From positions 1,672,166-1,736,165 of the forward strand of contig NW_003314299.1 of the NCBI RefSeq assembly GCF_000143415.4: a stretch of 64,000 nt of DNA. Reading direction: 5' to 3'. This stretch comes from Selaginella moellendorffii (lineage: Eukaryota > Plantae > Lycopodiophyta). Position numbers and translations under genes: made by a program. Positions 1 to 30,112 of the stretch are shown here, piece after piece. Under the pieces are notes generated by a model. That model was not told the origin of the DNA. It was given only the letters and a program-made list of their open reading frames with translations, and did no database searches. Numbering within the stretch: the stretch's first letter is position 1; every line of letters begins with the position of its first letter.

Positions 1-3000
1 AAATCAAGTGTCGGAGTAACACTTGTGAAAATAGTCCTTTTGAGTAGGACAGGAATGCAAGAAGTGTATTCCAGTGAGCTAGTGCCTCACAAGTAGGACC
101 TTACGGGTCTGTGGATTAACTAAGTCCAAAACTGCTGGATGACTCAAGTAGAGTCAACGGATGGTCCTAAAAGGACTGATGGAAGCATTTGGACTGAGGT
201 GTGTTGTACCCCACAAAGGATGGGGGGGGATCATAGGATCCAAGGATGAGAACAGAGGGTATCTCATCGATGGCAAAATGTGCCATGCTAAAGTTATGGG
301 AAAGGTGTTCCCAGAAGAAAACAACTTTGACATAAAGTTGTGTGTGACCTCTATGGTGCAGTGCTAACGGATGGTTGGCATGAGATAGAGCGGTGTTGGT
401 CTTGGCAAAGACTTAGACACAAAAGGGAAATGTCATAGAGGTAGGCTCGTGGAGCTGATGGTGTGGAGACACCAAATGTGCCAAGGTGTGATACCTTGAG
501 GCTATGTTGGTGGGTTCATGAGAACCCCTTGCCAAAGGAATCCCAATGGAAATGGGAATAGCATAGCCTAAGCTGCAGAGCATGCAATTGGAGTGTGGTG
601 ACCCAGAGAATGATGGAGGTGTGGAAGCACCAACAATGAGTTGTAGGATTTGACAACTACAAGACAACTAAGCAAGAGGTGCAAAATAACTGGTTAAACG
701 GGTAGAAGGTAGCTACCCAAGACTTCTTAATAGCATAGGGATGTTGGATATACCCTTACAGGGGATAAGTTGCTTGTGTTGCGATATAGTAAGTCAATGT
801 CATAAAAGGAAATACTCATTGTCAAGAAAGCCATCATTGGGACACCTGAACACTCTAGAACACCAGAAGGTGGTGTTTGATGTCGCGAGGGCAATGGATA
901 AAGCCCAAGGGACTAAGTCCCTAGCGAATGATGGATAGAAGGTGCTATCCAAATATCCAAGGTTGCGGAGACAGGAGAGGACTGTCTACCCGAGTTGGAC
1001 AAAGCCAAAAATGGAATTTTGGCAAGGCTAGTGATGGGCATGTAAAGGCCCATAAGCAACAATGTAATCCCAGTGTGTGGGATTATAAGGTGAGCATACC
1101 CGGATTGAGGAACCACTCCCTGGGCTATTGGGTAGGTTCATCCCTAAGAATACTTGCTAAGGCATGATAGAAAGTGCAAAGCTATCCTCCTGGTCTGGAG
1201 GAGAATAACCAAAGGAAACATATGGGGCCAAAAGGCAAGTAGTATTAGGATGGAACTGAACCATAGAAATCGAAGGGCATAACCAAGGTTGGTTATGCCA
1301 GCTGGGAGTGGAGAATCAAGTGGGGGCTCGAGGGTGTTGCCGCTAGCAACCGTGATGCCATGGAGAGTCTAAAATATGGAATTGTCCATGTTAGACTATG
1401 TGGCATTTGGAAGGCTTGCAAAAAGGGAGACCTTAGCAAGCTGAGGGACGGAGTTCCTTCAAGGTTCCCAAAGACGATTCTAGGTAGCTTAGTACCTAGA
1501 AAGGCCAAGTGTAAATGGTTCATGGAACGCGCGAAATCAGAGTGGCGCAGCAGAAGCGTGGTCTTGAAGCTTGCCATGAGACAAGGCTATCAAGGTTAGG
1601 GAAGTAGTTCCCGAGTGTTCAAAGAGAGGGCTTTGAACGAAAGTCAATGGTCAAGGACTTTCACGCTTATGCAGGAACCATTTTACAGTGGTCGGAGGAC
1701 TTGCCAAGCGAGATTGGCACGTCGGGGGAACAAATACCCTAATTGAAGGTGATAACTTCAAAAAGGGTGGGCCATGGGGCCGAGCATGGAGGAGTCCATG
1801 CATGATCACAGACATGTCAAGTGAGAGGACTTGGCAGTGTGGAGGAACTAAGTTCCTAAGCTGTGATCTGTAGCGCGCTTTAAAAATAAGTTGGTGCACC
1901 GGCGTGGGGAGTCACGCCAGGCATCTTGTGTGATGCCGTCCGTAGATGCATATACGGAGGTTGGGTTCGAGTCCCGACCCTCTAGTGCTTGGGTTCGAGT
2001 CCCAAATCACTAGGGCGTGGTGATGGTTTGGAATATGAGGACACTCATATTTCGGTGGTCATGGACTCTCAGTGGGGAGACTGGTTTGGGCACACCGCCA
2101 AGCGAGGGATGCCTCGGAGTCGTGATGCACGGTTAGATTGCTTAGTGTGAAAGCTCAGCATATCTAACTTGAACACTTTGGTGCAAGTGGCACCAAGGTC
2201 GTGGTGAGTGAGATGGGGACACCTAATCTCAGTTGCTATGAACCCTTGGCCGTAAGGGCTAGCTTGGGTGCACCGCCAAGTGTGGGGGATGCCCCCGGGG
2301 TTATAGTCAACAACTTGGAGGTCTAGAAGACCAAGTACCTCTTGGCAACTCTGTTAAGGTGCCAAGGTGAGATCACTAGGTGATCTTATGGCCAGATAAG
2401 GACAAGGTCCTTGGTTGGCTAAGGAATGAAGTTCCTGGTTCAAAATGTTGAGATTGAACTGTTTAAGGTGATGTGGCTTGGTCGTGATGACCAAGTGGGA
2501 AGAGCACCTAAGGGAAATAAACTATATCCGTGCGATGGCATAGTGAGTCCGAGGAAAGTAGTCTCTATAAAAGACCCATGGGGGGGTCACGAAGTTGGGC
2601 CGTGGATAGAGCCCATAGCAGAAGATGCTAAAGAGACGTACTAGGGGTGAACATCCTCCGGACTTGGCAAAGAAGAGTCTTTGCTATGGAACCGAAACAA
2701 TACCTCAAGGAGGGAGGTAGAGATTCAATGTTGCTTGGTGCAACAATCAATGGATAGGAGCAAAAGATGAGTGGCCAAGATAGGGCCGTGGAATCCCTTA
2801 GAAGGAATCCAAGTGACAAAGTTAGGCGAGGAACACTAATGTGTTGGACGCTAACAAGTTGCGGGAAAGGAAGTGTGTTTCCAAGGAGGGATTCCGAAAT
2901 GCTCCGATTTGGCGAAAGTGGAAGCTCCAAGGGAGGGAGCGGTAAGGTAGCCAAATGATAGAGCCATGAACAGCCCTAGCACAAAGTATGATAACTGGAA

Positions 3001-3467
3001 CTTTGGCACGAACTAGAAGAGAGGATGATGGTGCCCTCGAGTAGAGAACTCCCTAGGATGGGAAGTGGAGTTGCACAAAAGGTGCAAGGTAAGGTGTCGG
3101 AGACACCTAGGAAATTGACTCCAAGAAGTCAAAATTCAAAGTTCCAAAGTGCAAAGGTTATATCAATGGAAATTGAGACTACTCGAGAAGGAGTAGTGGG
3201 ATTGACTTAGAGAAGGGTCTCTAAGAGGTTTAGCGAGAACTAAACCAATAAAAGGAGAGAACCATTACATGTGGTCCAATCAGTCTCTAAGTTGTAGAGA
3301 CTATGCTCCTTAAAGGATGGACAAGGCATGGTGAGCCTTTGGTGTCAAACCATAGACAAAGATTGGTTAGGTGCCAAGGATGGAAATGGTAACACGTGTG
3401 GGTGTTATTTTATGAAAGGGTTTACCGTTCGATGAGGACATCGAACTTCGTCTATGGGTGGTGGAGT

Positions 3468-3978
3468 TGTGAGACACAAAATCCCTAGGCCCCAAAGTGG
3501 AGCCAGAAGGGCGCCACATGGTAGTGGCCGAAGCGAGAGCCAAACGAGCGTAACACGTTTGGACCAAAAGCTTCGACTTGAAAAGTCAAGAGCGGGAGTG
3601 GAACTCCCAACGAAGTGCTCGAGGAACGAGCACGAAGCGAGCAAAAGGCGAGGCTCCAAAAAGGGACCCAAAAGGACCAACAAATGACACGTGGGAGTGT
3701 CCGAGATGGACTCGAGTTGGAGTCCGAAGTGGAGTCCGAGATGGACCCAAGTTGGAGTCCGAAGTGGAGTCCGAGATGGACCCGAGATGGAGTCCGAAGT
3801 GGAGTCCGAGGTGGACCCGAGATGGACCCGAGTTGGAGTCCGAAGTAGAGTCCGAGATGGACCCGAGATGGAGTCCGAGATGGAGTCCGAGATGGAGTCC
3901 GAGGTGGACCCGAGATGGACCCGAAATGGAGTCCGAGATGGAGTCCGAAGTCGAGACCGAGACCAGGACCGAGACCGG

Positions 3979-4010
<32 letters not shown>

Positions 4011-5118
4011 TCGGGACCGAGACCGAGACCGAGGCCAAGGCCGAGACCGAGCCCGAGACCGAGTCCGAGTCCGAATCTGAGTCCGAGTCCGAGTCCGAGT
4101 CCGAGTCCGAGTCCGGAGCCTAAGAGGGTGAAAGCCCAAAGCGTTCGTCTCCCAGACCCTGGGGGGTTTGGTGAGCTCCAAAAGTATAGTAGGGGGAGGA
4201 CTGCAGTGGAGCCAGTTTGGCCAGGAAAGGCCAGTTTGGCCCAGGAAGGCCGGACCCAGTGTTGGGTGATGAGCTGCCCACTGGGAAGTCCAAGACTAGA
4301 GTGAACACGGACCGACAAGCGGGGTAGCTTGGTGAAGTGTTCAAGAGCCGGCTCTAGTTCCCCCGGGAGATCGACTGGCCGATGCTCCCAGTCCAAGTGT
4401 GGGTGGCACTACCTACTTGGATACCTGGTGTGGCTCAACGGAACCCGCTCTAAGCCCATGGCTAGAGCACCCAAGGGCAGAAGGCGAGGAGAGTACCTAG
4501 GTGGCTCGCGTAAGGCCACGGTGTTCCGAAATGTTGTCCCAAAGGCCCAGACTGTGGAAAGGAAGAGGAGTAGTCCTCTGGGGTAGTGACCAAGGACACA
4601 GTCACACAGTGAGGAAGGCCTAGAGGATAGTGGGACTTAGTGGTCGGGCCGGTGGGCCTCGATCCAGTGGCAGTGTTGGCGAACACAGCCAAGGACAGAA
4701 AGGGACTTGGTGGGGACCGGAACAGAGATATTGGGGAAGGCTATTCCCCATGTCTGTAGGCATCCTAAGGATGTTAAGGAGTGGATCTGGGATGATCACT
4801 CATGGATGGATGACCCAGTCTTTGAGAGACGGGATTGGAATGTAGGTGGTGTTGGACCATCAGTGGGACCGAGGTAAATGGGCATGGCCTTAGCGTAACG
4901 GGCCAATATGTCGGTGGTACCTTGGGGTGTCGATCATGGGATCGGACACGTGGAGCACTTGGACCAAGTGCTAAGGTTGAGTGGCATGGATGCCATTCTC
5001 GGGGCTAGCAAGCCCCAAGTCCTGAGTTGGGCTTATGGAGGTTGTGAATGAGACTCCTCCAAGTGGTCGGAGGTGTGGTTAAGTGACTAAAGTAGAATGG
5101 AAAAATTAGTCGCTTACA
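3468..5118 (+). repeat. Family A 3' LTR (TGTGAGAC...GTCGCTTACA) with internal minisatellite
   Basis: TG...CA ends with short inverted termini. The same ends recur at 18765-20664 and 24709-26061. Confidence 0.9.
3695..4115. repeat. Tandem 12-mer (GAGATGGAGTCC/GAGATGGACCC) and 6-mer (GAGACC/GAGTCC) array inside the LTR
   Basis: Directly visible. It produces the low-complexity ORFs in all frames. Confidence 0.95.
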
Positions 5119-5349
5119 ATAGGCTAGCAGGGGCCAAAGATGGCATGAGGCCTCATGCCATCTTGATATATACACAGCTGTAGGCAAGTAAAAACATACA
5201 TGACAATACGCTAGCCATGAAATTGCAAGGGCCCAAGATGGCATGTGGCCTCATGCCATTTCTAAATGTGGTCCTAAGCCATTCCATGGTGAACATACCA
5301 GGAAGCACAAGTGCCGAATATCAAGAGGAAGCGGTAACCACACCAAAGA

Positions 5350-5485
5350 CAGTGCCGCTCGCAACACCGCAACTACTCGTAGTGCCGCTCGCAACACCGC
5401 AACTGCTTGTAGCGCCGCTCGCACAAACTGCCACTCGCATAAACTGCCGCTCGCAATGGCGCTCGCAATGCCGCAACCGCTCGTA
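5350..5485. repeat. Short tandem repeat (~30-bp unit containing GCCGCTCGCAACACCGCAACT)
   Basis: Directly visible repeated units. Confidence 0.8.
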
Positions 5486-6282
5486 GACGCATAAACCACA
5501 GCCCACAACGCCGCTTACACAAGCAGCGCTCACTGCGCTCAGCGGAACCAAGAACACGGCGCACAAAAATGATAGACCTAGGGATGAGTTCGAGAATTCA
5601 AAAATAACACACACTTGAACGTCACATCAAATCCTCTGACAAACCAGATCTTATGATTCCTCTGACAAATTTCAAACTGAGTAGCTTCTAGACTTTGCTG
5701 TCCGAGGTTGAACTTTGTCACATCATGTCCTTGCCTCGATCCAGCTGTGCCATGTCAGTGATTCGAACTTTGCCATGCCATGCCAGCGATCCGCGCCAAG
5801 ATTATTCGCCGTGTAAAGGAATAATTATGCTGTGTGTGTACGTCCATTTATGGCAATATAAGGCCACACGCCATTCAAAGAATAATGCTAGTCGAGCATT
5901 TTTTGGTGCATTTTTGGTTTCAAAATTGCATGAGCCCACACGCTATAAAGTTTACCTGTACCAAAAATAGAAACAGCTTTATTTACTTGGGAATTTAAGT
6001 GGTTGAGGCATTTTTAAACTTACAAACACATGCCCTACTTACATTCCTTTGGTTGCTTAAAATTCAAAAATATTATAAACCTTTCTTTTTGCATTTTCAA
6101 TGTTTTCAATTATGGTTTTTGATTTTCGCAGGACCAGCCTAGTAATCTATTTGCATCCCGTCATGTTTATAGCTAGCTTTCGTTTGTCCCCTTCGCTAGC
6201 CTGAGATACATCTGCTCGGCATCTGCCTCTTACAGCATTTGCCCAGAAAGGGCATCTTTCTTCACGCAGCATTTGCCACATG

Positions 6283-6315
6283 TTTAGGGTTTAGGGTTTA
6301 GGGTTTAGGGTTTAG
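6283..6315 (+). repeat. Interstitial plant telomeric repeat (TTTAGGG)x4 plus partial
   Basis: TTTAGGGTTTAGGGTTTAGGGTTTAGGGTTTAG. Confidence 0.95.
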
Positions 6316-7890
6316 CAATTCAGTAGCTTGATAAACATGCAAATACAGAACTTGATGCAAAATCCTTGGATATGTCACAATGCCCCTAGGACCATAAACA
6401 CATTTCAATAGAGAGGGTCCTTTCATTTCATAACTCCTTATGTAGATCTTGGTGAAACCAGAGTTAGTGAAGTTAGTTTCTTGTGATCCTGCATCTGATT
6501 GTGATGTCCCTGCAGTGTCGATGGAAAGGTCAATGCACACCAAACTGTAAAATCTTGGAGCAAAATAACGGTCGGATCTATGGCAAATGCCCCTGAAACA
6601 TTGTAAGGCTCGTGTGGTCTCATGTGGTGTCCGATCGAGATGCTTCTTTGCAGGGTCATCAAGAAAGACATTGTATACCATTCTGTAAAATCTAGTTGCA
6701 ATCTAACGGTTGGATCTCCAGAAAACTCAAAAAAATCTCGCGCATGTCAGAATATCCTAGGAATATACTCCTATGTGCCCCTGAAAATGGCATGCGGCCC
6801 CACGCCATTCAAGAGATAACGGCAGATGACGCTGAGAATTTTTTGGTGCATTTTTTGGGTTCAAAATTGCATGAGCCCACACGCTATAAAGTTTATCTTT
6901 GCCAAATAGAGAAAAGTTTATCTGTGTCATGTGAGGTAGTTACAGTCCTTTGTGCTCGGCATCTGCCTCTTGCAGCATTTGCACTGAAAAGGAATTTTTC
7001 TCCATTCAGCATTTGGCCCTAAAAATGGCATGTGCCCACACGCCATTCAAGGAATAACGCCACAGGACGCCTGGATTTTTGGGTTTAAAATGTTTAGGGT
7101 TTTTTGGGTTTTTTCAAAATATTTTGGGTCCAACGTTTTTTGGGTTTCTTTGGTTCAAAATTGCATGAGCCCACACGCTATAATATTGATTTGAGAGAAA
7201 AATAGAAACAGATAGAATTTCTTTATTTAGCTGAACATCTGCCATTTTTGGAAATACAAGATGCTTTGGAATATCCAATCATGCATGGTATAAATATAGC
7301 GAGGGTATTAAATGATATCCCAATCATGATCTTTCTTTTGGATTTCGCGTGCATGCAGTCCGAGGAATGATGACGTTGCGGATTTCTTTTGGATTTTGCG
7401 TGCTTGCATGCGCGCGGCAATCTAGAAATTAATGGTGGCGCCCAAGTCCGAGGAATGATGACGTGGCAGGATTACCAACCGTTGTGACATTTCGCGCGTG
7501 TGAGGTTAGGTTTTGCATTTTGCTTCATACTCGCGCTCACATCACACTCGCGCTCCCGCTCACATCGCGCTCCCACTCGCGATCATGCTCACTTCTTTAC
7601 AGGTTTCTCGTGTGCATCGGCATCCACTCGCGCTTGCATCACACTCGCGCTCGCATCGCGCTCGTGTGCATCGGCGTCCACTTCAAGACACACCCAGTTT
7701 GTAACTTCGCCGCCAACTCCGCCGCCCACTCCGCCACCCACACGCAGCCCACTTGGCGTCCCGGGAGATTTCAGCGCCACTCTCCAATTGTAAGTGGCAG
7801 AGTAGCCTTGCTGCTACGATCCGCTGCACACATAGTGCACATTCGCCAGCGAGTCCAGCCTCGATTGTCACGGCCTCCATTCGGCTTCAA

Positions 7891-10800
7891 ATGGTAAGTC
7901 TTTTAGGCCAAGTAGAAAATGGCATGAGGCCACATGCCATTCAGTAGCAACATTGGCATGCACCGATTGGGCTCTCGAGTGCAGTCTGGTTACAGATGGC
8001 GTGTAGCCTCACGCCATCTTAGGATGCAGCCTCAAGATATGTGATGCAGTGGTGAATGGCGTGTGGCCTCACGTTATTTCCAGCTGCTAGCTTTTCATCT
8101 GTCAGCTCTAATTGTTGTGCATTTCTGAACAGGCGAGGAATTGCGTTCTTCTTCCAGCCACTGTCAATGTGGATGCAGAGAAGGGGGAGGAGCTCACCAG
8201 TTGGACTTTCGGGATGGAAGGCGAGGATCTGAGGCTGTACAACACAGATGGTGGGAGAAAAGAATGCATGGGGATCCTCATCCAAGTGACAGACACTCCA
8301 TGCAGTTCCATGCAAGAATATGGACTGGCACTTGTGGTAGAGACAGCGTCCGCCTTCAAGATCCACCTTGCACATCCTAGCGGCTTCCTGGAGGGGGGCA
8401 GCGGCTATGAGGAATTCCTAGAGGGAGCTAGGGAGAGCTTGTCCAGGAGGCCCACAATTTCAAAGACGCTGCGGGTCTATGAAGATCACATGGAATCCAC
8501 GGACCTCACCTACGGCGATGTTCAAAAACTATATTCCAACATTGAGCCGTTGAGAGTGCCTCCAGTTCACGAAGCGAAGGGGAAGGGGGTCGATCTGGAA
8601 ACTACCCCGAAGCAGAAAAGGGTGGTCAAGCTCAAGCCGACGTCCGACTCTCTTGCTCCAAAAAAGAAGCTACTCGGTGATGCCATTGCCTCGGGTTCGA
8701 ACACTACACCCACCAAAAAGAAGAGCCGCAAAGAGCAGAAAGAGCAAGAAGAGGCAGCAAAAATCGTCGCAGATAATAGTACTTGTTACTATTCCAACAA
8801 AGTATATACAATCGACGTGAGCCGTATCGACATCCAAAGCAAATACAACCACAGGCTAGTATCTGATGAGTGGGTGGAGAAACTGAAGCAGAAGATGCTG
8901 GCAAGTCCAGTAACACCCGACATCGCAGACATGATCCCCTACTACCGAACAATGAAGGGCGAGACGAGGTTTCCAGACTTGATCAATAGGAAGGTGTTGG
9001 ACGATCAGAACATCCAGTTCTATGCCGTCTCCGGGCAGCATTCTAGCTTGGCGATGCAAGAGGTAGTTCTGGATATTATGGTGGGCGAGGAGGTGAAGAA
9101 AGTCTTCAAGACAAGAGTTGTCCGCCTGATAAAAGGCAACTCGCCCCTCCGATCTATCATATCCATCTCCCACGCGCAGAATGTCAAGCAAGAAACGTGC
9201 TACAAATTGGGTCTGCACGAGACATTGGCACGAACACAGAAGCTCTGGGTTCAACTGAAGAAGCCACAAAAACCAGGACAAGGACGTGCACTAGCAACTA
9301 GCGCCTGGCAGGTAAGCCTCGTTGCATGTGGCATAGCATGTGGCCTCACGCCATTTCCATTGCAGGAATTCTCGAGTCTTCTCTCGAAAACACTGGGGGT
9401 CAATGACACACTCAGCATCCATAACATTCTACTCGCGACAAAAGCTGTTTTTGACAAATGGGTAGATGTGCTGAGGAGGTACCATGACAGGGAGTTGCTA
9501 AACTCAATGGGTGTGGAGGACGGTCGGAAGCCCAATGATTTGAAGCTCAACGCCTTGCGTTTCTCGCGGTCTCTAGACGATGACGACCTTCTGACAGTGG
9601 CTAATGCTCTTCTACGTGGTGAGGTAGTCTTCAACAAGACCAAAATGACTCCCGGCCATATTGTGACATACGAGGACTTGTGCACGACTCTAAGAGCTCG
9701 TGCGCTATTGAAGGATTGGATCTTCGAGCAAGTGGCCGTGGAGAGGGTGAGCATCGATACCACGCAAGAGATGATGGAAGAGCTGGAGTTGTCAAATGAA
9801 GACATCGACGACTACGTGAAGGGGGCCCCCAAGTTCATCGATCTACTGCGGGATGCCACGAAAAGTAAAGCTGAGAAGTTGGATCAGTATCCAAATTTCA
9901 TTAAGAGGGATGTCGACCGCCGGCTTCAGAAACAGCTCGACCCCGCAGCAGAGGCCTATCGAGAACCTTACCGGGTATACGTGAATTTGGATGAGGATCA
10001 AAGGTGGAGGAGCATCGTTTCCCGCGGAGATGAGTAGGTCAAGAACATCTTTTGTGTGATGGACTTCACAAACGAGGAGATCACTCATGCAGACGAAGTC
10101 AGCTCCATCATTGACTTAATGGTGGGATTTGCGGAGGTGGAATCTTCAGCCCACTATATGATCTACGACTCCGAATCCTATCACAAGTTCTGGAAGGCCT
10201 TGAACAAGGTGAAGGCTCGGTTGAAAGGCAAGGAGATGCAGGAGATCCATGGGATAATGGCTAAGAAGAAGATACCGACGAATGTCCGCATCTTCACACT
10301 CGCCCTTGTTATTGGTCCTGCAGCAGAGTGGGACTGGAGTGACTTCCCAGCTTCGTTTGACAAGGCCGATCGAATTGATCTGAGGGAGGTCAATTTACCC
10401 GTGCCTGAGGAACTGAAGACGGCTATGGAGCTTTCAAATCCAGAGAAAGCTCCAGGTGCAGCATGGGAAATGCTCAGCTGGGTCTTCAACGCAATAGCAC
10501 CTGCTTCCGACTCCAAGGGCAAATGCGTTGTCGAGTACAACTGCGGCGGACTATTCTTTCGAGCCGCACTACTCAAGGGTGTCCCGTGTGTTGCGGTGAC
10601 AAACTCCATTGAAGAGGTGACTTTAATGAAGCATATAATTACAGTTGCCAAAGAAAAATAGTATCTTCTCTGCGAACCTGGTGAGTACGCACTTTAAGTT
10701 TAAATGTTATCTCACAAGCTCTGTATGCAGGAGCGTGGCCACCCCCAGATGCTGAAACGGCGTTAACAGCTACTGTTGAAGATACCCATGTTAGGCCGAG

Positions 10801-12574
10801 CTCACAACCTGCACAAGGTAAGGTCACGTGAGGCCTCACGCCATTTTGATTATAGATCGTTGTGAATATTCAGACACGAGGACTGAAAAGCGCACTGGTG
10901 GCGCGTCGAAGAAGGACAAACAGACAAGTAATAGGAAAAAAGGAGGTACAAATTATATTTGCAATGGCGTGTGGTCTCATGCCATTCCTTGCAGGAGACA
11001 CTTCTTCAAAGGCAAAACAGGCAAGCATCAGCCAAGCTCAAACTGACAGTGGTCATAAAAAACAAAAGCACGTTGGACAGTCGTCGGGATCAGAGGCGTT
11101 TGATTCGAAAAGGAAGAAGGGCAACGAAAAGATGATAGGTAATGCCTCGCAGTCACCACCTCCTGACTCAGATTCCTATGGTAGACTCCCCTTCCCCAAT
11201 CTCAATGGAGAGGTACAATGGATGAGGGATGCTTTTCAAGTCAGGGCCACGTTTTTCTCATCTCGTCGTGTTCGAAGGGTGCAAGAACATGCAGAAACCA
11301 TGTTAAGACAGTCGGGTGAGGATACGGTCCTAGGTCACGCACTAAAACAGGCTATGGATGTCTTGTATTTTGAGATGGAGACTCGGCCAGATGATTTTCC
11401 CAAGATGGTCTTGGAAGAACAAGCCATCCAGCCTGAGCAGCCTATGGAAGAAATGCAGGAGGGGGATGAGGAGCCAGAGAAAGATAATGAGTAGGAAGAG
11501 CAGAAGGACAAAGAGGAGGACAAAGAAGAGGAGGACGAAGAAGAGGAGGACGAAGAGGACTTGGATGGTCCTCACAATGGTGACGATCACAATAACGACG
11601 ATGACGATGATGACGACGATGGCCAGCCTGAGGTGGCCAAAGAGCAGCGGAGGAAGGTCATACAAGACAAACCATCAGGTAAATAATAGTACATCCATTC
11701 CTAACCTTTTACCATTTCTAACATTGTCCATGTAGGTTGCAAAGCAAATGGTAAGTAGAAATTATTCAGTTGAATTAAGATACAAACTCTAGCCTTTAGT
11801 GTCGAGGAAGGATAGTGCCAAGCAAGGGTCGAAATGTATGTCCAATCCTTCAGAATCAGCAGTGCGCCCAAGTGATATCGGTCCTAGTTCCTCAATAGCA
11901 GTTGATGGTAAATACAGTATAGTCGATTCAATGTGCTAATGAGTTTGTTTTTAGTAGCCAGTAGGGAGGATACCATCTCAATCGAAGGGAGATATTTGGA
12001 CATGCATATGGATCCGCCAATGGACTCTACTTGCCTGCAAGAGTCATCAGAGCTGGTGGAGGCTACTATCCATATCAACGCCAAGCAAGTTGACCACGCT
12101 CCACTTGATGCTGCCCATACCACTGAGTCAATCTTGTCCACGTATCCAACTGACGGTGACCAGGCGCCATTGGACCCGCATGAGGCTGCCCCAGCCGCCG
12201 AGCCGGTTGTATCCTCATTTCCAACGGACTCAACGTGTGCCCAATCGTCTGACTACGCGCCGTTGGAACCTCCCTACACCGCCTCTGCTGCCTGTTCGGT
12301 CATGTCCACTTTGCCAACGGAGGCACCAGCTGAAATGGCGTGTGATCACACGCCATCGGAACCACCCCATGCCACTGTTGAGCCAGTTGTACCAGCGTCT
12401 ACAACTGAAATGGCATGTGCCCACACGCCATCGGATGCGATTGACCCCACATTGCAGAGGAGAGTATTTCCACCCTTCACGTTTCCTCGACCAAAACCCT
12501 CTCAACGACCATCGGGAGCACCATTCGCTAATATTGTAGATGGTAAAATTGACTTGTACCATTTTTTATGCTGA
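7891..12574 (+). pseudogene. Spliced gene 1: ParB/Sulfiredoxin-like domain, degenerate beta-class DNA amino-methyltransferase-like fold, acidic tail
   Basis: ATG|GTAAGT at 7891; intron 7894-8132 splices in frame into the 641-aa ORF. In-frame 54-nt intron at 9312-9365. ParB-like motif FYAVSGQHSSLAM near 9018. In-frame TAG at 10035 reads through to IFCVMDF...MLSWVFNAIAP...CVVEYNCGGLFFRAALLKGVPCVAV. Further TAGs at 10659 and 11492. Short introns start at 10681, 10818 and 10946. Confidence 0.6.
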
Positions 12575-13270
12575 CGCATTTCATTTTAGAGTCACGGCGA
12601 AGGTACTGTATCGTTTTTGATCTGAACGATGTTCTTTTCTCCCATGAGCGTGGCTCGTCCTCGAATGTCACTGCACCCTCCAAAGCCTGCGGTCGCAAGT
12701 TGGTCAAAAGAGACAGATTCACATTAATCACACGGGAGAAACTGCGGGATCTAATAATGACCATGCGACACTTAAAACAGGGGGTCGGGTTCAATTTGCA
12801 ATTGGGAGTTTGGACATCCATGATGCGCCACAATGCATTAACGTTGCTACAGATGATGCACGATCAGACGCGAGTAATATTACCATTTGACTTTCTCCTA
12901 ACGCAGGAGGATTGCTTGACTATGGTCCATGTGAGGGGTAGCAAGCCCATCTTCGTCAAGCCAGAGGCTGTAGTGATGAACCGGACTGCTAGGTCAAGTG
13001 AAATCCTCATCATCGATGACTCGCCGATTAAAACTGCAGCGAACACGGAACGGTATATCAGAAGCCATTTGATTGGACAGACACCAGTCATCATTTATGG
13101 CATGTATATTGTCTAGCCAAGCACTATCCGCATCTCCATAATCTGCTCAACCGGATGGGTTCTTCGACCACTGAACATGAGCGTGGACATATTAGAGAAG
13201 AGATGGCATTACTATTGGGTTTAAATCCTGATAGTGTGGAGAGTGATGAAATTCCAAGATTATTGTAAAG
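12568..13270 (+). pseudogene. FCP1/NIF-type HAD phosphatase domain (possibly the last exon(s) of gene 1)
   Basis: Motifs CIVFDLNDVL, LGVWTSMMRHNA, LLTQEDC, IFVKP and ILIIDDSPIKTAAN match the NIF/FCP1 pattern. Candidate acceptor TTTTAG at ~12589. Confidence 0.7.
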
Positions 13271-13739
13271 GCGTTGGAGGCAAAAAATAACAGTCTGAGA
13301 TGGCATGTATTTATTTAAACATGTAACTTATTATGGCATGGGGTTCCATGCCATTGTATTAATATTAAAAGACAATTCTTTGAGAGGATTTGCATTATAC
13401 TAGAAGTGTTACAGCATGTTATTGGAAGTCTACGAAGTTGTTTTATTAATAAGGGGAAAGTAAAGATTGAATGGGGACTTGGGCTCCACCTAGACTCGGA
13501 GCAACTGAGCCAATATTAAAAGGATGGAAAGAAATTGGACGACGATGACAAGGAGAAGAGAGAGGTGAAGCAGTGGCAGAGGGAGGAGAAGTGATTGAGT
13601 AGACATTTCCTTATTTAAAATAAAATGGCATGTGCCTCAATGCAGTTGAATTTTGTTATATTTATATACTATATAAAGGTTTGGAAACCTTATTTTACAA
13701 GTGGGATAATGACAATTCCCACTTTAACGAAATAGAGCT

Positions 13740-15275
13740 TTTCTCTTCCTTTCTTTCACTTTACTTTCGTGGCTACTTCTCTTACTTTCAGAGGATGTTT
13801 CTCCATTGGACAATGGCCCATGCCTTGGATTTCGTGCTCAGGCTGCATTGCCGTTTGTATGGAGGTTCCTCGCTTGGCTCGGTCTATGTTCCAGGTTCTT
13901 TGGCCCTTCCTTTATCATTACTACACCCCGCACATTTCCCCTCACTCATTCCATATCATCTACACTCACAGTTCCATCACCACTCACTCCTAGCAGCGTT
14001 GCCAGCACTTATCTCTAGATGCCCGTCTTGCATCTTTCACTCTTTCACCATCATTCACATCTCCGTTTGAGGTCACATTTACACCATACCACGGACACAC
14101 ATACGCACATCAGCAGCAACAGACACCACCTCATTTGGACGTGCCATTTCCGGGATGTCCTTATGACCATTTGCCGACGATGCACTAGCTTTTCTGGAGC
14201 AACTTTTTTCCAACCAGGTGAACCTGTTCACTCAAGGCACCTAGGTGGATCTTTAGGCGAGGCCACAGAAGCCGAAGCCACTTTCTTCTACTCCAGCACT
14301 CAGTGGACACATGCCACCTCTCTTTACCGGCAACCCAGCGACTATGCCATCCATTTCAGCTGCTGACTTCTTCAGTCCGACAAATCAGCCTGGCCACCTT
14401 CTCAGAGAGCCACCACCATCTCAGCGCTCCACCATATCACTCCACCATATCGGTGCTGGAGCTGGCGTAGGAGTAGGAGCGAGAGTAGGTGGTTACCAGT
14501 TACAGGTTACAGGTACCCGGCTACCGGCTACCGGTTACCGGCTACTCCGAGTGGTCAGTGCTTACCCTACGGGCCAATGGTTATCAATGGCTACCACTTC
14601 AGAGTGCCACCACTATCTCGGTGCTCCACCATATCACTCCATCTTTCATCATTTCCACACTTACCACCTTTGGGCAACACATCCCCTCTTCTACCTCTCT
14701 TTCTTTCTTGATTTCAGCCAATCCTTGGAGCATACCGGAAGTCATCAAGAGGTTGCATTTGCATATTACACTTTCCTGAGCCGAAATCCAGGTACGGGTT
14801 AAGTTCTTTGGGTACTCACGTTCTTTTTCCTCTATTTTCCTCCTCTTTTCACACTTTTTCTACACTTTTCTTCAACTTCAGGGTCCAGTTTGACTACAGG
14901 GTTTCCCACCGGGTTTTCTCCCTGTCTCCAAACTTCTCATCTACCTTTTTTTTCTTTTCCACTTTGTTTTCTAGAGTTTCTACTATTTCACGCAGTTACC
15001 AGCACTTGGCATCAGTAGCAAACGTACACTCTACACTCTTCGGAGGGTTCTCGCGCGTCTGGAGCCAGTGCGATCCACCGTGGTCGCATGTTACGGCGTG
15101 GCCACCGAGAGAGTGAGAGAGAGAGAGGGAATATTCTGGTCCTCAGAATATTCCCCATCTTCCTTGTATAAAACCCTTGCCTCACAAGGGCGAGGGGGGG
15201 CATTTTGTGGAGAGCAGTGAAGCATTTCTCGTGTTTGAGCGAGCGTTGGGGGAAGCGCCCCTCCTTCCCCCAACA
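13740..15275 (+). repeat. LTR-like fragment ending CCCCCAACA, with two terminal hairpins
   Basis: TATA-like TTGTATAAAA at ~15164. Ends CCCCCAACA directly against family A internal sequence. Its 5' end was not identified. Confidence 0.4.
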
Positions 15276-18200
15276 ACACTTGTGAAAATAGTCCTTTTGA
15301 GTAGGATAGGAATGCAAGAAGTGTATTTCAGTGAGCTAGTGCCTCACAAGTAGGACTTTACAGGTCTGTGGATTAACCAAGTCCAAAACTGCTGGATGAC
15401 TCAAGTAGAGTCAAGGGATAGTCCTAAGAGGATTGATGGAAGCATTTGGACTGAGGTGTGTTGTACCCCACAAAGGATGGGGGGGATCATAGGATCCAAG
15501 GATGAGAACAGAGGGTATCTCATCGATGGCAAAATGTGCCATGCTAAAGTCGTAGGAAAGGTGTTCCCAAAAAGAAAACAACTTTGACACAAAGTTGTGT
15601 GTGACCTCTATGGTGCAGTGCTAACAGATGGTTGGCATGAGAAAGAGCGGTATTGGTCTTGGCAAAGACTTAGACACAAAGAAGAAGTATTATAGAGGTA
15701 GGCTCGTGAAGCCGATGGTGTGGAGACACCAAATGTGCCAAGGTGTGATACCTTGAGGCTATGTTGGTGGGTTCATGAGAACCCCTTGCCAAAGGAATCC
15801 CAATAGAAATGGGAATGGCATAACCTAAGCTGCAGAGCATGCAGTTGGAGTGTGGTGACCTAGATAATGATGGAGGTGTGGAAGCACCAGCAATGAGTTG
15901 TAGGACTTGACAACTACGAGGCAACTAAACAAGAGGTGCAAAATAATTGGTTAAACGGGTAGAAGGTAGCTACCCAAGCCTTCTTAATGGCATAGGGAAG
16001 TTGGATATACCCTTACAGGGGATAAATTGCTTATATTGCGATATAGTAAGTCAATGTCATAAAAGGAAATACTCATTGTCAAGAAAGCCGTCATTGGGAC
16101 ACCCGAACACTCTAGAACACCAGGAGGTGGTGTTTGATGTCGCGAGGGCAGTAGATAAGGCCCAAGGGACTAAGTCCCTAGCGAATGATGGATAGTAGGT
16201 GCTATCCAAATGTCCAAGGTGGCGGAGACAGGAGAAGACTGTCTACTCGAATTGGACAAAGCCAAAAATGGAATTTTGGCAAGGCTAGCAATGGGCATGC
16301 AAAGGCCCGTAAGCAACAACGTAATCCCGGTGTGTGGGATTATAGGGTGAGCATACCTGGATTGAGGAACCACTCCCTAAGCTATCGGGTAGGTTCATCC
16401 CTAAGAATACTTGCTAAGGCATGATAGAAAGTGCAAAGCTATCCTCCTAGTCTTGAGGAGAATGACCGAAGGAAAGGTGTGAAGCCAAAAGCAAGAAGGG
16501 GATAGAACCGAACCATAGGAATCGAAGGGCATAACCAAGGTTGGTTATGCCAGTTGGGAGTGGAGAATCAAGTGGGGGCTCGAGGGTGCTGCCGCTAGCA
16601 ACCGTGATGCCATGGAGAGTCTAAAATATGGAATTGTCCATATTAGATTATGTGGCAATTGGAAAGCTTGCAAAAAGGGAGGCCTTAGCAAGCTAAGGGA
16701 CAAAGTTCCTTCAAGGTTCCCAAAGACGATTTTAGGTAGCTTAGTACCTAGAAAGGCCAAGTGTAAATGGTTCATAGAACGCGTGAAATCAGAGTGGCAC
16801 AGCAGAAGCGTGGTCTTGAAGCTTGCCATGAGGCAAGGCTATCAAGGTTAGGGAAGTAGTTCCCGAATGTTCAAAGAGAAGGCTTTGAACGAAAGTCGAT
16901 GGTCAAGGACTTTCACGCTTGTGCAAGAACCATGTTACAGTGGTCGGAGGACTTGCCAAAGCGAGATTGGCAAGTCAGGGGAACAAATACCCTAGTTGAA
17001 GGTGATAACTTCAAAAACGGTGGGCCATGGGGCCAAGCATGGAGGAGTCCATGCATGATCACAGGCTTGTCAAGTGAGAGGACTTGGCAGTGGGGAGGAA
17101 CTAAGTTCCTAAGCTGTGATCTATAGTGCGCTTTGAGTATAAGTTGGTGCACCGGCGTGGGGAGTCACGCCAAGGTGATGCCATCCGTAGATGCATATAC
17201 GGAGGTTGGGTTCGAGTCCCGACCCTCTAGTGCTTGGGTTCGAGTCCTAACTCACTAGGGCGTGGTGATGGTTTGGAATATGAGGACACTCATTTTTCGG
17301 TGGTCATGGACTCTCAGTGTTGAGACTAGCTTGGGCACACTGCCAAGCGAGGGATGCCTCGGAGTCGTGATGCACAGTTAGATTGCTTAGTGTGGCTTAG
17401 CATATCTAACTTGAACACTTTAGTGCCAGTGGCACCAAGGACGTGGTGAATGAGATGGGGACACCCAGTCTCAGTTGCTATGGACCCTTGGCCAGAAGGG
17501 CTGGCTTGGGCGCACCGCCAAGTGTGGGGGATGCCCTCAGGGTTGTAGTTAACAAGTTAAAGGTCTGGAAGACCTAGTACCTATTGGCAAACCTGTTAAG
17601 GTGCCGAGGTAAGATCACTAGGTGATCTTGTGGCTAAATAAGGACAAGGTCCTTGTTTGGGCTAAGGAATAAGGTTCTTAGTTCAAAGTGTTGATTTGAA
17701 CTATTGATGATGGTGTGGCTTGGTCAAGGTGACCAAGTGGGAAAAGCACCTTAGGGAAATGAGCTATGTCATTGCGATGGCATAGTGTGTCCAAGAAAAA
17801 TACTCTCTAAAGAGACCCATGGGAGGGTCACAAAGTTGAGCCGTGGATAAAGCCCACAGCAAAAGATGCTAAAGAGACTTACTAGGGGTGAACACCCTAG
17901 TCTTGGCAAAGTAGAGCCTTTGCTATGGAATCAAAAGAATACCTCAAGGAGGGAAGTAGAGATTCGGTGTTGCTTGGTGCAACAATCAACGGATAGGAGC
18001 AAAAGATGAGTGGCTAAGGTAGGGCCATGGAATCCCTTGGAAGGAATCCAAGTGGCAAAGTTAGGCGAGGAACACTAATGTGTTGGATGCTAACAAATTG
18101 CGGGAAAGGAAGTGTTTTTCCAAGGATGGATTCCGAATTGCTTCAATTTGGCGAAAGGGGAAGCTCCAAGGGAGGGAGCGGTAAGGTAGCCAAATGATAG

Positions 18201-20664
18201 GGCCATGAACAGCCCTAGCACAAAGTATGATAACTGGAACTTAGTGCCCTAGAGTGGCACGAAATAGAAGAGAGGATGATGGTGCCCTCGAGTAGAGAAC
18301 TTCCTAGGATGGGAAGTGGAGTTGCACAAAAGGTGCAAGGCAAGGTGTCGAAGACACCTAGGAAATTGACTCCAAGAAGTCAAAATTCAAAGTTCCAAAG
18401 TGCAAAGGTTATATCGATGGGAAATTGAGACTACTCGAGAAGGAATAGTGGGATTGACTTAGAGAAGGGTCTCTAAGAGGTTTAGTGAGAACTAAACTAA
18501 CAAAAGGAGAGAACCACTACATGTGGTCTAATTAGTCTCTAAGTTGGAGAGACTACCCTCCTTAGAGGATGGGTGAGGCATAATGAGCCTTTGGTGTCAA
18601 ACCATTGACGAATATGGAGAAGGCATGGTGAGCCTTCAATGTCAAACTATTGACAAATATTGGCTAGGTGCCAAGGATGGAAATTGTAACACATGCGGGT
18701 GTTACTTTATAAAATAGTTTATCGTTCGATGAGGACATCGAACTTCATCTATGGGTGGTGGAGTTGTGAGACACAAAATCCCTAGGCCCCAAAGTGGAGC
18801 CGGAAAGGGTGCCACGTGGTAGTGGCCGAAGCGAAAGCCAAACGAGTATAACACATTTGGACTAAAAGCTCCGACTTGGAAGGTCGAGAGCGGGAGTGGA
18901 ACTCCCAACAAAGTGCTCGAGGAGCAAGCACGAGGCAACCAATAAGCAAGGCTCCAAAAAGGGACCCAAAAAGGACCAACACATGACACGTGGAAGTGTC
19001 CAAGATGGAGTTCGAGGCAGACCCGAGTTGGAGTTCGAGATGGACCTGAAGTGGAGTCCGAGATGGACCCGAAGTGGAGTCCGATATGGAGTCCGAGATG
19101 GAGTCCGAGATGGACCCGAAGTGGAGTCCGAAATGGACTCGAAGTGGAGTCTGATATGGAGTTTGAGATGGACCTGAAGTGGAGTCCGATATGGAGTCCG
19201 AGATGGAGTCCGAGATGGACCCGAAGTGGAGTCCGATATGGAGTTCGAGATGGAGTCCGAGATGGAGTCCGAGATGGAGTCCGAGATGGAGTCCGCTATG
19301 GAGTCCGATATGGAGTCCGAGATGGAGTCCGAGATGGACCTGAGATGGAGTCCGAGACGGATTCCGAGATGGACCCGAGATGGAGTCCGAGATGGACCCA
19401 AGATGGAGTCCGAGATGGACCCGAGATGGAGTCCGAGATGGACCTGAGATGGACCTGAGATGGAGTCCGAGATGGACCCGAGATGGAGTCCGAGATGGAG
19501 TCCGAGATGGAACCGAGACCGAGGCCGAGACCGAGGCCGAGACCGAGACCGAGACCGAGTCCGAGTCCAAAACCGGGACCGAGACCGAGTCCGAGTTCGA
19601 GCCCGAGTTCGAGCCCAAATCCGAGTCCGAATACTAATACAGGCAGTTGGGTGAAAGCCCAAAGCGATCGTCCCCTAGGGGGGGGGGGGGGGGGGAGGCT
19701 GCGGGGGGTCCCAAAAGTATAGTAGGGAGAGTGTGGGGGTTGGAGCCCCCAGGGAGCCAATTTGGCCAGGAAAGGCCAGTTTGGCCCAGGAAGGCCAGAC
19801 CCAGTGTTGGGTGATGAGCTGACCACTGGGAAGTCCAAGACTAGAGTGAACACAAACCGACAAGCGGGGTAGCTTGGTGAAGTGTTCAAGAGCCGGCTCT
19901 AGTTCCCCCGGGAGATCGACTGGCCGATGCTCCCAGTCCAAGTGTGGGTGGCACTACATACTTGGATACCAGGCGTGGCTCAACGGAACCTCGCTCTAAG
20001 CCCATGGCTAGAGCACCCAAGGGCGGAAGGCGGGGAGAGTACCTAGGTGGCTCGCGTAAGGCCACGGTGTTCCGAAATATTGTCCCAAAGGCCTAGACTG
20101 TGGAAAGGAAGAGGAGCAGCCCTCTGGGGTAGTAACCAAGGACACAGTCGTGCGGTGAGGAAGTCCCAGAGGACCGTGGGACTTAGTGGTCGGGCCTGTG
20201 AGCCTCGATCCTGTGGCAGTGTTGGCAAACACGGCCAAGGGTGGAAAGGGACTCAGTGGGGACTGACAGAGGGATATTGGGGAAGGCTATTCCCCTTGTC
20301 GGTGGGCATCCTAAGGATGCTAAGGAGTGGATTTGAGATGACCTCTCATGGATGGTTTGCCTAGTCTTGGAGAGCCAAGACTATGATACAAGTGGTATTG
20401 GACTACCAGTGTGGCAAAGGTGATTGGGCATGGCCTTAGCGTAACAGGCTGCCATGTTGGTGGTACTTTTGAGTGTCAGTCATGGGATCGGACACGTGGA
20501 GCAATTGTACCAAGTGCAAATGTTGAGTGGCATGGATGCCATTCTCGGGGCTAGCAAGTCCCAAGTCCTGAAATGGACTTATGGAGGTTGTGATTGAGAC
20601 TCCTCCAAGTGGTTGAAGGTGTGGTTAAGTGACTAAAGTAGAATGGAAAATTTAGTCGCTCACA
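15275..20664 (+). mobile_element. LTR retrotransposon family A, copy 2 (5'-truncated internal region plus 3' LTR 18765-20664)
   Basis: Colinear with copy 1 from AACACTTGTGAAAATAG onward. LTR runs TGTGAG...CTCACA. Confidence 0.88.
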
Positions 20665-23600
20665 TGAATCTAGACACTTTCCATAAATAGCATTTGGGAC
20701 CAAAATAAGACTAACACAAAGGGCATGATAGTGAGGGTGTTTGGCAGACATGGTAAACTATCATGTAGCTGTGAGACACAAAATCCCTAGGCCCTAAAGT
20801 GGAGCCAAAAGGATGCCACATGGTAGTGGCCAAAGCGGAAGCCAAACGAGCGTAATACGTTTGGACTAAAAGCTCTGATTTGAAAAGGTCGAGAGTGGGA
20901 GTGGAACTCCCAAAGAAGTGCTCGAGGAACAAGCATGAGGCGAGCCATGAGTGAGTCTCTAGAAAAGGGGACACAAGAGGACCAAAACATGACACATGGA
21001 AGTGTCCGAGAAGGAGTCCGAGATGGACCCAAGATAGAGTCCGAGATGGAGTCTGAGATGAAGTCCGAGATGGAGTCCAAGATGGACCCGAGATAGACCC
21101 GAGATTGAGTCCAAAACAGACCCAAGATAGAGTCCGAAATGGAGTCCGAGATGGAGTTCGAGATGGAGTCCGAGGTGGAGTCCAAAGTGGACCCGAGATT
21201 GAGTCCGAGACAGACCTGAGATGGACCTGAGATGGACCTGAGATGGGGATCTTGGGAACAGTATGAGGGTTTTTTCAAAGGGTTGAGGATGTGATCCAGA
21301 TGAGCATTTGATGCAGCAAACGGGCTAATGTAGTTGTGATAAACAACTATAGTTGGGATCACGGGAAAGATAAAGACTCCAAAACAATAAAGGAGTCATA
21401 CGATTACCCTCATATAGTTGAGGCTAGTGCTCATAAATTCGAGACCGAAATTGATGATCATGGGAGGTTAAATACGGAAGAGGACACAAGTCCTTGAAAT
21501 GGTAGCCGGGGCTACCTCTAATAAATGCTAGAACAACCCACGGGGTTGGGGGTGTACTTAGAGGATGAGTTGGTATTCTTATCACATAGACAAGTGGTCC
21601 TAAGGGGCAAAAGGTTGCCCCAAAATCAAGTGTCGAAGTAACACTTGCATAGATGATCCTTGTGAGTAGGACATGAATACAAGAAGTTGTATTCTAGTGA
21701 GCTGGCACCTCAAAAAGTAGGACCTCACAGGTCGTCGGATTAACAAAGTCCAAAAAGCTAGATGACTCAAATAGAGTCAAAGGAATAATCCTAAGGGATT
21801 GATGGAAGCATTTGGACTAAGGTGTGTTGTACCCCACGAAGGATGGGGGGATCATGGGATCTAAGTATGAGAATAGTGGGTATCTCATCGATGGCAGAAT
21901 ATGCCATACTAAAGTCATAGAAAAGATGTTCCCCAAAAGAAAACAACTTTGACACAAAGTTGTGCGTAAACTCTATGGTGCAGTGCTAATAGATAGTTGG
22001 CGTAAGAGACATCCATATTGGTCTTGGCAAAGATTTAGACATAAATAAGAAGTGTCATAAAGGTAGACTCATAGAGCCGATGGTGTGGAAACACCGAATG
22101 TGCCAAGGTGTGTTGCCTTGAAATCAAATTGGCGGGTTCATGAAAACCCCTTCCAAAGGAATCCCAATGGAAATAGAAGTGGCATAGCCTAAGCTGGAAG
22201 GCATGCGATTAAAGTGTGGTGACCCAAATAATGATGGAGGTGTGGAAGCACTAGCAATGAGTTATAGGACTTGACAACTATGAGGCAACTAAGCAAAAGG
22301 TGCAAATAATTGGTTAAACTGGTAAAAGGTAACTACCTAAGACTTTTATTGGGTTAAGAAAGTTAAATATATCCTTATGAGGGATAAATTGTTTATATTG
22401 TGATATAATAAGTCAATGTCGTAAAGGGAATGTTCATTGTTAAAGAGGCCATCATTGGGACACCCAAACACTCTAGAACACCAGGAGGTGGTGTTTGGTG
22501 TCATGAGGGCAAAAAATAAGGCCCAAGGGACAAAGTCCCTAGCGACTGATGGAAAGGAAGTGGTATCCAAACGTCCAAGGTTGCAGAGATGGGAAAAGAC
22601 TGTTTACCCGAATTGGACAAAGACAAAATAGAATTTTGGCAAGGCTAGTGATAGACATATAAAAGCCCATAAGTAGTAACATTAATCCTGGTGTGTGGGA
22701 TTATAAGTTGAGCATACTCGGATTGAGGAACCACTCCCTAAGCTATCGAGTAAGTTTATCCCTAAGAATACTTGCTATGGCATAGTAGAAAGTGCAAAGC
22801 TATCCTTCTAAGCTGAAGGAGAATAACTGAAGGAAAGGTGTGAGGCCAAAAACAAGTAATAAAGGGATAGAACTGAACCATAGGAATTTACAGGCATAAC
22901 CAAGGGTGGTTATGCAAGTTGGGAGTGGAGAATCAAATGGGTGCTCGAGCATGTTGTCACTAGCAACCGTGATGCGATGGAGGGTTTAAAGCATGGAATT
23001 GTCCATGTTAGACCATATGGCAATTAAAAAACTTGTGAAAAAAGAGGCATTAGCAAGCTAAGGAACAGAGTTTCTTGAAGGTTCCCAAAGATAATTCTAG
23101 ATAGATAAGTACCTAGAAAGCCAAATGTAAATAGTTCATAAAGTGTGCGAAATCAGAGTGGTGTAGCAGAAGCGTAGTCTTGAAGCTTACCATGAGGTGA
23201 GGCTATCAAAGTTAGGGAAGTAGTTCCCAAGTGATCAAAAAGAAGGCTTTGAACGAAAGTTAATGGTTGAAGACTTCACGCTTATGCATGAACTATGTTA
23301 CGGTGGCCAAATGACTTGCTAAGTGAGATTGGCAAGTTGGGGGAACAAATACCCTAGTTGAAAGTGTTAACTTAAAAAAGGGTGGCCCATAGGGCCAAGC
23401 ATGGACGAGTCCATGCATGTTCACAGACTTGTTAAGTGAGAGGACTTGGTAATGCAGAGGAACTAAGTTCTTAAGCTGTGATTTGTAGGGTGCTTTAAGT
23501 ATAAGTTGGTGCATTGCCAAGTGTGGGGGATGCCCCCGGGGTCATAGTGAACAACTTAAAGGTCTAGAAGAGCAAGTACATCTTGGCAACTCTATTAAAG

Positions 23601-29700: not shown

Positions 29701-30112
29701 ATATAAAATAAAATGTTTGCAAAAAGAGTATTCTTCTCACTTCTTTAAATTTGTACTCAGTGCTTTCAAGCTAGTAAATGTCAAGTTCGTCAGAATTTTA
29801 AAATTATTAAATTTGAATTAAGATTCTATATAAGGCCATATAACTATTTGAAAGGAAAAAAAAACAACTGTGATGGTACATATGCTCTCACAATACATTG
29901 TAACATCATACACCCGAAAGACTATCACGAAATATTTTTTGAGAAGGTAAAGACAAAAATGGAGACTCATAAATACTATGGGCAGTATTGCAAAAAGAAC
30001 CTCACAAGTATATGAAATGAAAAGTGAAATAATAAAATATTTTTATTAATTATATAAGGTATAATTAGTTTATATTATTGATAGAGAATAAACATCGATA
30101 GTGCTGGAAAAT

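Follow-up and report, generated by a model that had tools for sequence, protein, structure and literature searches.

What reads a dense array of long palindromes that lies in front of, inside, and behind a single predicted plant gene? The stretch analyzed here, 64,000 nucleotides of Selaginella moellendorffii contig NW_003314299.1 (positions 1,672,166 to 1,736,165; hereafter the window), carries such an array in what is likely a plant transposon (the array element), together with a predicted spliced gene that has ParB-like motifs. The window was scanned with the pattern ATGGCRTG-N6-CAYGCCAT, with at most 2 mismatches in a core scan and with 3-mismatch and gapped sites added in a wider one. The core scan returned 15 matches (10 exact, 1 with one mismatch, and 4 with two), compared to a mean of 0.02 and a maximum of 1 in 100 dinucleotide shuffles. 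All of them fall between 5140 and 13354 and none elsewhere, in agreement with an earlier reading of this DNA (the preliminary description) that had not seen the full motif in the rest of the window. The wider scan recovered sites at 10823 and 13625 (three mismatches each) and at 5850 (a 9-bp gap and two mismatches), which brings the total to 18; each of the 18 copies that had been listed was found within 3 bp of its position, and the perfect 28-bp palindrome at 5137 is present (Table 1). The half-site AT[GTA]GCRTG[AT]G gave 27 hits in the 64 kb, all 27 between 5140 and 13625. Three stray 3-mismatch matches outside the array (1899, 17152, and 34173) lie in a retroelement-like repeat and a microsatellite, and a de novo search of 5120-13720 for repeated gapped palindromes ranked the same motif first. 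The array is real and, within the window, specific to the element; it is probably functional.

The preliminary description had treated the central 6 bp as a variable spacer. Over the 16 sites with a 6-bp center, however, the six positions are W in 14, G in 15, G/C in 15, C in 13, C in 15, and W in 14; because this center reads W-G-S-C-C-W, it belongs to the dyad, and the motif as a whole is 22 bp of dyad whose half-sites abut. The consensus, ATgGCRTGWGS-SCWCAYGCcAT, consists of two such 11-bp half-sites. Tolerance is symmetric, with position 3 loose in each half and position 6 restricted to A or G in each half, and this symmetry and the fixed geometry bear out the suggested signature of a dimeric protein binding site. 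At the CpG of positions 5-6, CA is present in 16 of 32 half-sites and TG in 0 of 32, in a scan that allowed up to 4 mismatches, so that TG copies were detectable, and in which duplicated copies are not independent. Since neutral decay of a methylated CpG would yield both CA and TG, CA without TG counts for a protein site.

Some sites arose together. A block of two sites is present in triplicate, as the pairs 5850/5925, 6787/6866, and 7025/7160, and 5 of the 7 site pairs (out of 153) with flank similarity above the 99th percentile of random fall within this triplication. The statement that the flanks are largely unrelated thus stands for the remaining sites and fails for the triplicated upstream block (six sites) and for the coding repeat at 12335/12410. 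The five units of that repeat read DHAPLD, DQAPLD, DYAPLE, DHTPSE, and AHTPSD; since the complete palindrome is encoded in the last two, the motif may be on its way into or out of coding sequence.

The sites are distributed unevenly over the predicted gene. In the gene model, 10 exons from the ATG at 7891 to 13052 are joined in frame as 1,504 codons with three stops, all TAG (10035, 10659, and 11492); the introns are 47 to 64 nt long except for intron 1 (239 nt), and lengths near 50 nt are, we presume, reminiscent of Selaginella. Eight sites lie upstream of the gene, six in introns (three in intron 1 and one each in introns 2, 4, and 5), two in exons, and two downstream, so that 16 of 18 are noncoding in this model. 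Introns make up 13% of the gene yet carry 6 of the 8 sites within it (binomial P of 1.3e-4, given the gene model); with clusters collapsed, the count is 4 of 5 (P of 1.5e-3). Other copies of the element, examined in sequencing runs of which four were compared over 7780-11480 only, have ~59 extra bases at 11150-11153 with one more palindrome, again inside a GT-AG intron (47 nt) whose splicing preserves the frame. The AG acceptor lies in the extra bases, and this intron was not used in building the gene model. The window copy has deleted it, site included.

Our preferred reading, held with somewhat more belief than doubt, is that the array consists of self-recognition sites for an element-encoded dimer, likely the ParB-like product, with a role in anti-silencing or autoregulation. 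The two abutting half-sites would be read by an element-encoded protein acting as a dimer, most likely the product predicted from the spliced ParB-like gene. Many sites along noncoding DNA would then produce a high local density that singles the element out from the genome, and the protein, once bound, would leave the element open to transcription or lower its methylation, or would control its own promoter, in the manner of VANC21 in Arabidopsis. We infer that poor tolerance of the sites in coding sequence, together with some local duplication, accounts for their concentration in introns and upstream DNA.

The candidate reader is described from an open reading frame (ORF) with five ordered motif blocks. 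A post hoc test with first three and then five ordered ParB blocks, with free inserts, ranked the ORF first of 257 and first of 133 window segments; shuffles reached its score in 8 of 300 cases (three blocks) and in 9 to 13 of 1,000 (five blocks), a P value of about 0.01. Its score of 27.6 compares with 9 to 29 for held-out DGQHR proteins. The five-block path places Box II at GQHS, which shows no change in other copies among the 40 of 50 differences listed, while MAFFT alignment with bacterial ParB places it at an upstream GETR with canonical spacing and the arginine kept. The Box II arginine is required for nucleotide binding (PMC12704722); because the preferred alignment gives GQHS, a CTP clamp is doubtful, and the motif blocks are suggestive of a ParB-like protein. 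The preliminary description had proposed a cognate array for the ParB-like protein or a transposase: the sites do surround a gene with ParB-like motifs, while the ParB assignment itself rests on the post hoc motif test. Farther downstream, a region read by eye is possibly amino-methyltransferase-like; it has no DPPY-type motif, and the methyltransferase assignment has no profile support. The gene model ends, in frame, in a NIF/FCP1-like domain, its sole library hit, with DLNDVL at motif I. Such a phosphatase-fold partner has no counterpart among the ParB-like fusions described in the available parts of the literature cited here.

Several candidate relatives were discarded. A PADLOC match to PDLC03334 (E of 0.018) was rejected as ParB, with 0 of 28 bacterial ParB domains hitting that model and no match to it in any genome. 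Matches by tblastn to plasmids and phages (E of 0.9 to 8) were to primase and DnaE, and two matches among 301 bacterial genomes (E of 0.004 to 0.008) comprised one with internal stops and one to an unrelated flavoprotein.

Three eukaryotic systems and one bacterial group offer comparisons. In Arabidopsis, VANC21 recognizes a motif that is dense in introns, intergenic DNA, and terminal noncoding DNA of VANDAL21 and that was multiplied by tandem and local duplication; binding and anti-silencing were demonstrated, and the motif is a 9-bp nonpalindromic word in one orientation (PMC5735166). The array element shares an element-specific motif dense in introns and other noncoding DNA, and local duplication, but differs in its 22-bp dyad and ParB-like candidate reader; by analogy, VANC21/VANDAL21 would be the best functional model for the array. 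PAG3 of red-algal Plavaka (EnSpm/CACTA) transposons has a weak N-terminal ParB-like domain (HHpred E of 0.29) and inverted repeats adjacent to its gene, with self-binding proposed by the authors and not demonstrated (10.1101/2025.02.11.637652). As far as that report describes it, PAG3 resembles the present case in being an accessory gene with a weak ParB-like domain and inverted repeats in a multicopy element; it differs in that its repeats are tandem arrays beside the gene and its partner is a 2-oxoglutarate (2OG) oxygenase, whereas the array element's sites are dispersed over 8.5 kb and within predicted introns, and its gene ends in an FCP1-like domain. Sola1-1_Ec32, a giant DNA element of Ectocarpus, carries a gene combining ParB and an N4C/N6A methyltransferase opposite its transposase, for which binding and modification of its own element were proposed (PMC12477816). 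Going by the available description, a large spliced ParB-like gene is common to both, and a second element in our window has the same head-to-head design; in contrast, that description names no cognate DNA motif, and the array element has a possible, degenerate methyltransferase-like part (by eye) and lacks the transposase arm. ParB-type methyltransferase fusions also occur in chlorophytes and chytrids (PMC4738411). The bacterial systems ParB/parS, Noc/NBS, and KorB/OB likewise place several copies of a palindromic site close to a gene that has ParB-type motifs (PMC12704722), here 18 sites in 8.5 kb, but the array gene is eukaryotic and spliced, ParA and a helix-turn-helix (HTH) were not detected, and the Box II arginine is missing in the preferred alignment. 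No array of the motif was found in the prokaryotic or viral collections scanned. The motif itself is, we take it, unlike parS, NBS, and OB sequences. The array probably works like VANC or in the way proposed for PAG3, and it is not a demonstrated member of the ParB/parS group.

Outside the window, viral contigs held 62 loci with a single site, none with a second copy at ≤2 mismatches and none in a cluster, and scans of the same contigs for related loci found none. A stricter pattern matched one metagenome and one bacterial genome, which we took as chance. A literature search that covered sources other than subscription papers turned up no account, for land plants, of palindromes carried in introns together with a ParB-like gene.

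The element belongs to a repeat family that is plainly abundant and young. All or part of the stretch is present in 20 of 24 listed runs, all of one organism. In run X1, 16,404 of 2,800,581 contigs match a 3.7-kb segment, 15,190 (93%) of them at ≥95% identity (9,574 at ≥99% and 5,616 at 95 to 99%); contig depth in this run is not a copy number. The window copy, by comparison, is dead and decayed. Among the 40 of 50 differences from other copies that were listed, 30 have T or A in the window against C or G elsewhere; with the polymorphic position 10240 dropped, 29 transitions remain, 18 in CG, 7 in CHG, and 4 in CHH context (available cytosines, 320, 319, and 1,202). The TAG at 10035 is one of these transitions, that at 10659 is not among the 40 listed differences, and that at 11492 lies outside 7780-11480. 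None of the listed differences falls in the six covered sites, with ~1 expected. Observed/expected CpG is 0.72 and 0.87 in the element and 0.42 to 0.64 in five other stretches, a weak hint of lower methylation that is confounded by age and coding. Two single contigs of run X4 leave the window sequence exactly where sites 7919 and 10823 end and continue in sequence that it lacks, so the motif has other contexts in the same organism. A 47-bp piece at 7780-7826 is common to contigs of runs X20, X3, and X4, which diverge after it, and would represent either a leader module in common or a family related to this one.

A number of observations weigh against self-recognition by a ParB-like protein. 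The preferred Box II has GQHS instead of GxxR and so lacks the arginine. The ParB-like region has no match in Pfam, NCBIfam, PHROGs, or PDB sequences; homologue searches with its ORF at near, longer, and shorter lengths found none, with remote homologues outside their scope; and an exact look-up of four ORFs gave no match. Hidden Markov models (HMMs) and hhalign comparisons built from 28 to 31 bacterial domains of ParB type and from 5 DGQHR proteins gave no significant result, an HMM from 7 ParB-methyltransferase fusions supported neither domain, and two single-sequence AlphaFold models had pLDDT values of 32 to 33 and no usable fold. No HTH was identified, and 9366-10034 has no family hit. 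Six of the 10 complete predicted introns are without a site, and two sites are exonic. Run X20, which we guess to be RNA, has no splice joint, and two of its contigs continue into introns 1 and 2 without being spliced. In the window copy, 25 of 29 transitions are at CG and CHG; since decay falls there, this copy was methylated despite intact sites. Neither a transposase nor target duplications were detected for the array element, and its visible ends share no terminal repeat. Finally, the second element, which has a ParB-like gene by eye, is devoid of the motif and carries no other palindrome array (highest count 3, against 2 to 3 in eight shuffles).

The alternative that fares best, which we consider unlikely while giving it real weight, is that the sites bind a transposase or a TnpA-like derived regulator encoded on an arm lost to the left of 5120 and that the ParB-like gene is a passenger. 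As a binder, a transposase, of which none was found for the array element, is as hypothetical as the ParB-like product, and transposases are known as sequence-specific regulators of their own copies (10.64898/2026.08.24.746577). The ParB-like gene without an array in the neighboring element points the same way, as do the X4 contigs that depart at a palindrome end and so imply more sites elsewhere. Counting against a transposase, the sites span 8.5 kb and enter the introns of another gene rather than lying just near the ends, and no transposase of the array element is in view.

Neutral spread would also place sites in introns, since coding constraint alone would yield intron enrichment. One palindrome might have multiplied through local duplication, or as the footprint of a very small mobile unit, and survived in noncoding DNA only because coding DNA rejects it; six upstream sites do come from the triplicated block and two from the coding repeat. 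We rate this as improbable: despite unrelated flanks, all 22 bp stay in register at the sites in introns and downstream, variation is position specific and symmetric, and the sites are not bordered by common termini or by target duplications.

A host transcription factor reading the sites as captured enhancer or promoter motifs could account for the eight upstream sites and the three in the first intron. Variant copies moreover carry GCCCAC/TGGGCY-like words, which we take to be plant site II/TCP motifs, near a plant-telomere-type array. Typical plant factor sites are far shorter than a 22-bp dyad, and the motif is absent from the other 55 kb, four other element types included, which makes this reading quite improbable.

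RNA hairpins that guide or block splicing, or that feed small RNAs, seem to us very improbable. Short folds of single sites are good in 3 of 8 cases (z of -2.5 to -3.1), and one of two Rfam matches, both below the gathering score, is of microRNA type and covers two left sites (35.7 bits against 80.7). On the plus strand, though, the arms have an A-C mismatch in 7 of 16 sites, two of the three short introns that hold a site, introns 2 and 4, have folds no stronger than those of shuffled sequence (z of 0.45 and -0.22), and eight sites lie upstream of the gene; because of the arm mismatches and weak intron folds, the motif appears to fit a protein site better than an RNA stem. We give hardly any credence to a true parS-type centromere, at which a CTP-driven sliding clamp would partition or tether an extrachromosomal form of the element: repeated dyads do stand beside a ParB-like gene and the alternative Box II, GETR, keeps the arginine, but no ParA-like gene was recognized among the element's scanned ORFs (its left arm lies beyond the window), the five-block alignment favors GQHS, no HTH was found, and the element is embedded among chromosomal repeats. 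Self-marking or regulation fits better than a centromere because the host is eukaryotic and most in-gene sites are in predicted introns.

The surroundings are eukaryotic and plant-like, with GT-AG introns, a TTTAGGG array, long terminal repeat (LTR)-like repeats, a hAT-type DUF659 ORF, and CG/CHG-biased decay; Pfam assigned no ORF piece of the array element to a plant transposon family. An LTR-like repeat ends at 5119, and the array begins 20 bp beyond it and runs to about 13650, where unrelated sequence takes over. Because that repeat borders the element on the left and no terminal repeat joins the visible ends, the element has been cut, with any transposase out of view. On the minus strand, 5120-5560 has a GC-rich low-complexity leader, and sites 5238 and 5140 follow a GT donor-like signal near 5299. 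Judging by this signal, a leftward transcript may have an intron that contains site 2, and 5120-5560 is possibly the start of a leftward gene that mirrors intron 1 of the rightward gene and is truncated by the LTR-like repeat.

The second element has subterminal TTGAGCTCA-N5-TGAGCTCAA at each end (29505 and 41545) and a minus-strand transposase-like remnant, identified by eye at ~30700-33100 and without a Pfam hit. Facing this remnant in head-to-head orientation is a spliced gene of ParB-like and N6_N4_Mtase-like type (~34600-38100). That gene has a DRNHR motif and an N6_N4_Mtase match below the cutoff (E of 0.0014); its ParB label was given by eye, with a five-block score of 5.5 and no similarity to the array element's ParB-like ORF. 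An LTR-retroelement-like family occupies 1-5119, 15275-20664, 21623-26065, 43745-45461, and 62146-63955, with copies 77 to 89% alike, a purine-rich internal part without a long ORF, dozens of short perfect hairpins (7- to 11-bp arms) conserved between copies, and a 12-bp tandem array inside the LTR. A hAT-type element at 48830-52060 (DUF659, E of 8.3e-25) contains, near 50125-50786, an interrupting repeat that has another copy at 33040-33463. The LTRs of a minus-strand LTR element at 53627-60851 are 1,148 bp long and 98.5% alike; the element has a primer-binding-site-like word near 59700, and its interior contains no ORF of more than 153 codons. The pyrimidine-rich segment 13700-15274, which terminates in two strong hairpins (15127-15155 and 15245-15274) and a CCCCAACA end, is probably the LTR and leader of another minus-strand retroelement.

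Table 1. Positions of sites, predicted gene parts, and repeats in the window
Feature	Position	Strand	Remarks
LTR-like end of retroelement-like repeat	3462..5119	+	TG...CA, purine tract ahead; cuts element on left
Site 1	5137..5164, core 5140-5161	.	Perfect 28-bp dyad; 20 bp from end of LTR-like repeat
Site 2	5238..5259	.	Exact match
Two-site block, copy A	5850..5946	.	Site 3, 5850-5874 (9-bp gap, degenerate left half); site 4, 5925-5946 (2 mismatches)
Two-site block, copy B	6787..6887	.	Site 5, 6787-6808 (exact); site 6, 6866-6887 (2 mismatches)
Two-site block, copy C	7025..7181	.	Site 7, 7025-7046 (exact); site 8, 7160-7181 (2 mismatches)
Predicted spliced gene	7891..13268	+	GT-AG signals and frame continuity
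Predicted intron 1	7894..8132	+	239 nt; three sites
Sites 9-11	7919, 7996, 8056		First two exact, third with two mismatches; in predicted intron 1
ParB-like region	8808..9191	+	Five ordered motif blocks
Alternative Box II, GETR	8958-8969	+	
Candidate Box II, GQHS	9033-9044	+	
Predicted intron 2	9312..9365	+	54 nt, in frame; one site
Site 12	9333-9354		In predicted intron 2
Degenerate amino-methyltransferase-like region (possible)	10038..10658	+	By eye; motif-I-like VVEYNCGG near 10527
Predicted intron 4	10818..10873	+	56 nt; one site
Site 13	10823-10844		3 mismatches; in predicted intron 4
Predicted intron 5	10946..10994	+	49 nt; one site
Site 14	10964-10985		Exact; in predicted intron 5
Stump of further predicted intron	11139..11150	+	Loose contig ends at 11150-11153, runs X1 and X4
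Degenerate coding repeat, five units	12092..12436	+	Sites 15 and 16 in last two units
Sites 15 and 16	12335-12356, 12410-12431		In last two units of coding repeat
NIF/FCP1-like HAD phosphatase domain	12604..13059	+	Pfam PF03031, E of 9.2e-7, 29.1 bits, cutoff 21.8
Candidate last exon	13117-13268	+	Frame ambiguous
Site 17	13333..13354	.	Exact; downstream of gene model
Site 18	13625..13646	.	Degenerate right half; last site ahead of unrelated sequence
Second element	29041-41628 (12.6 kb)		16-bp terminal inverted repeats

A stronger claim, that a land-plant transposon uses a bacterial-type ParB and a parS-like 22-bp operator of its own, placed in introns and spacers over its length, to load on and mark all its copies and to resist silencing, is one that we advance tentatively and would sooner doubt than accept. 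It concerns a young, very abundant family with a sharp 22-bp candidate site and natural variants of it, which makes the idea directly testable. If true, it would provide a second route, unrelated to VANC, to VANC-style sequence-specific anti-silencing, and it would place ParB function in a plant nucleus.

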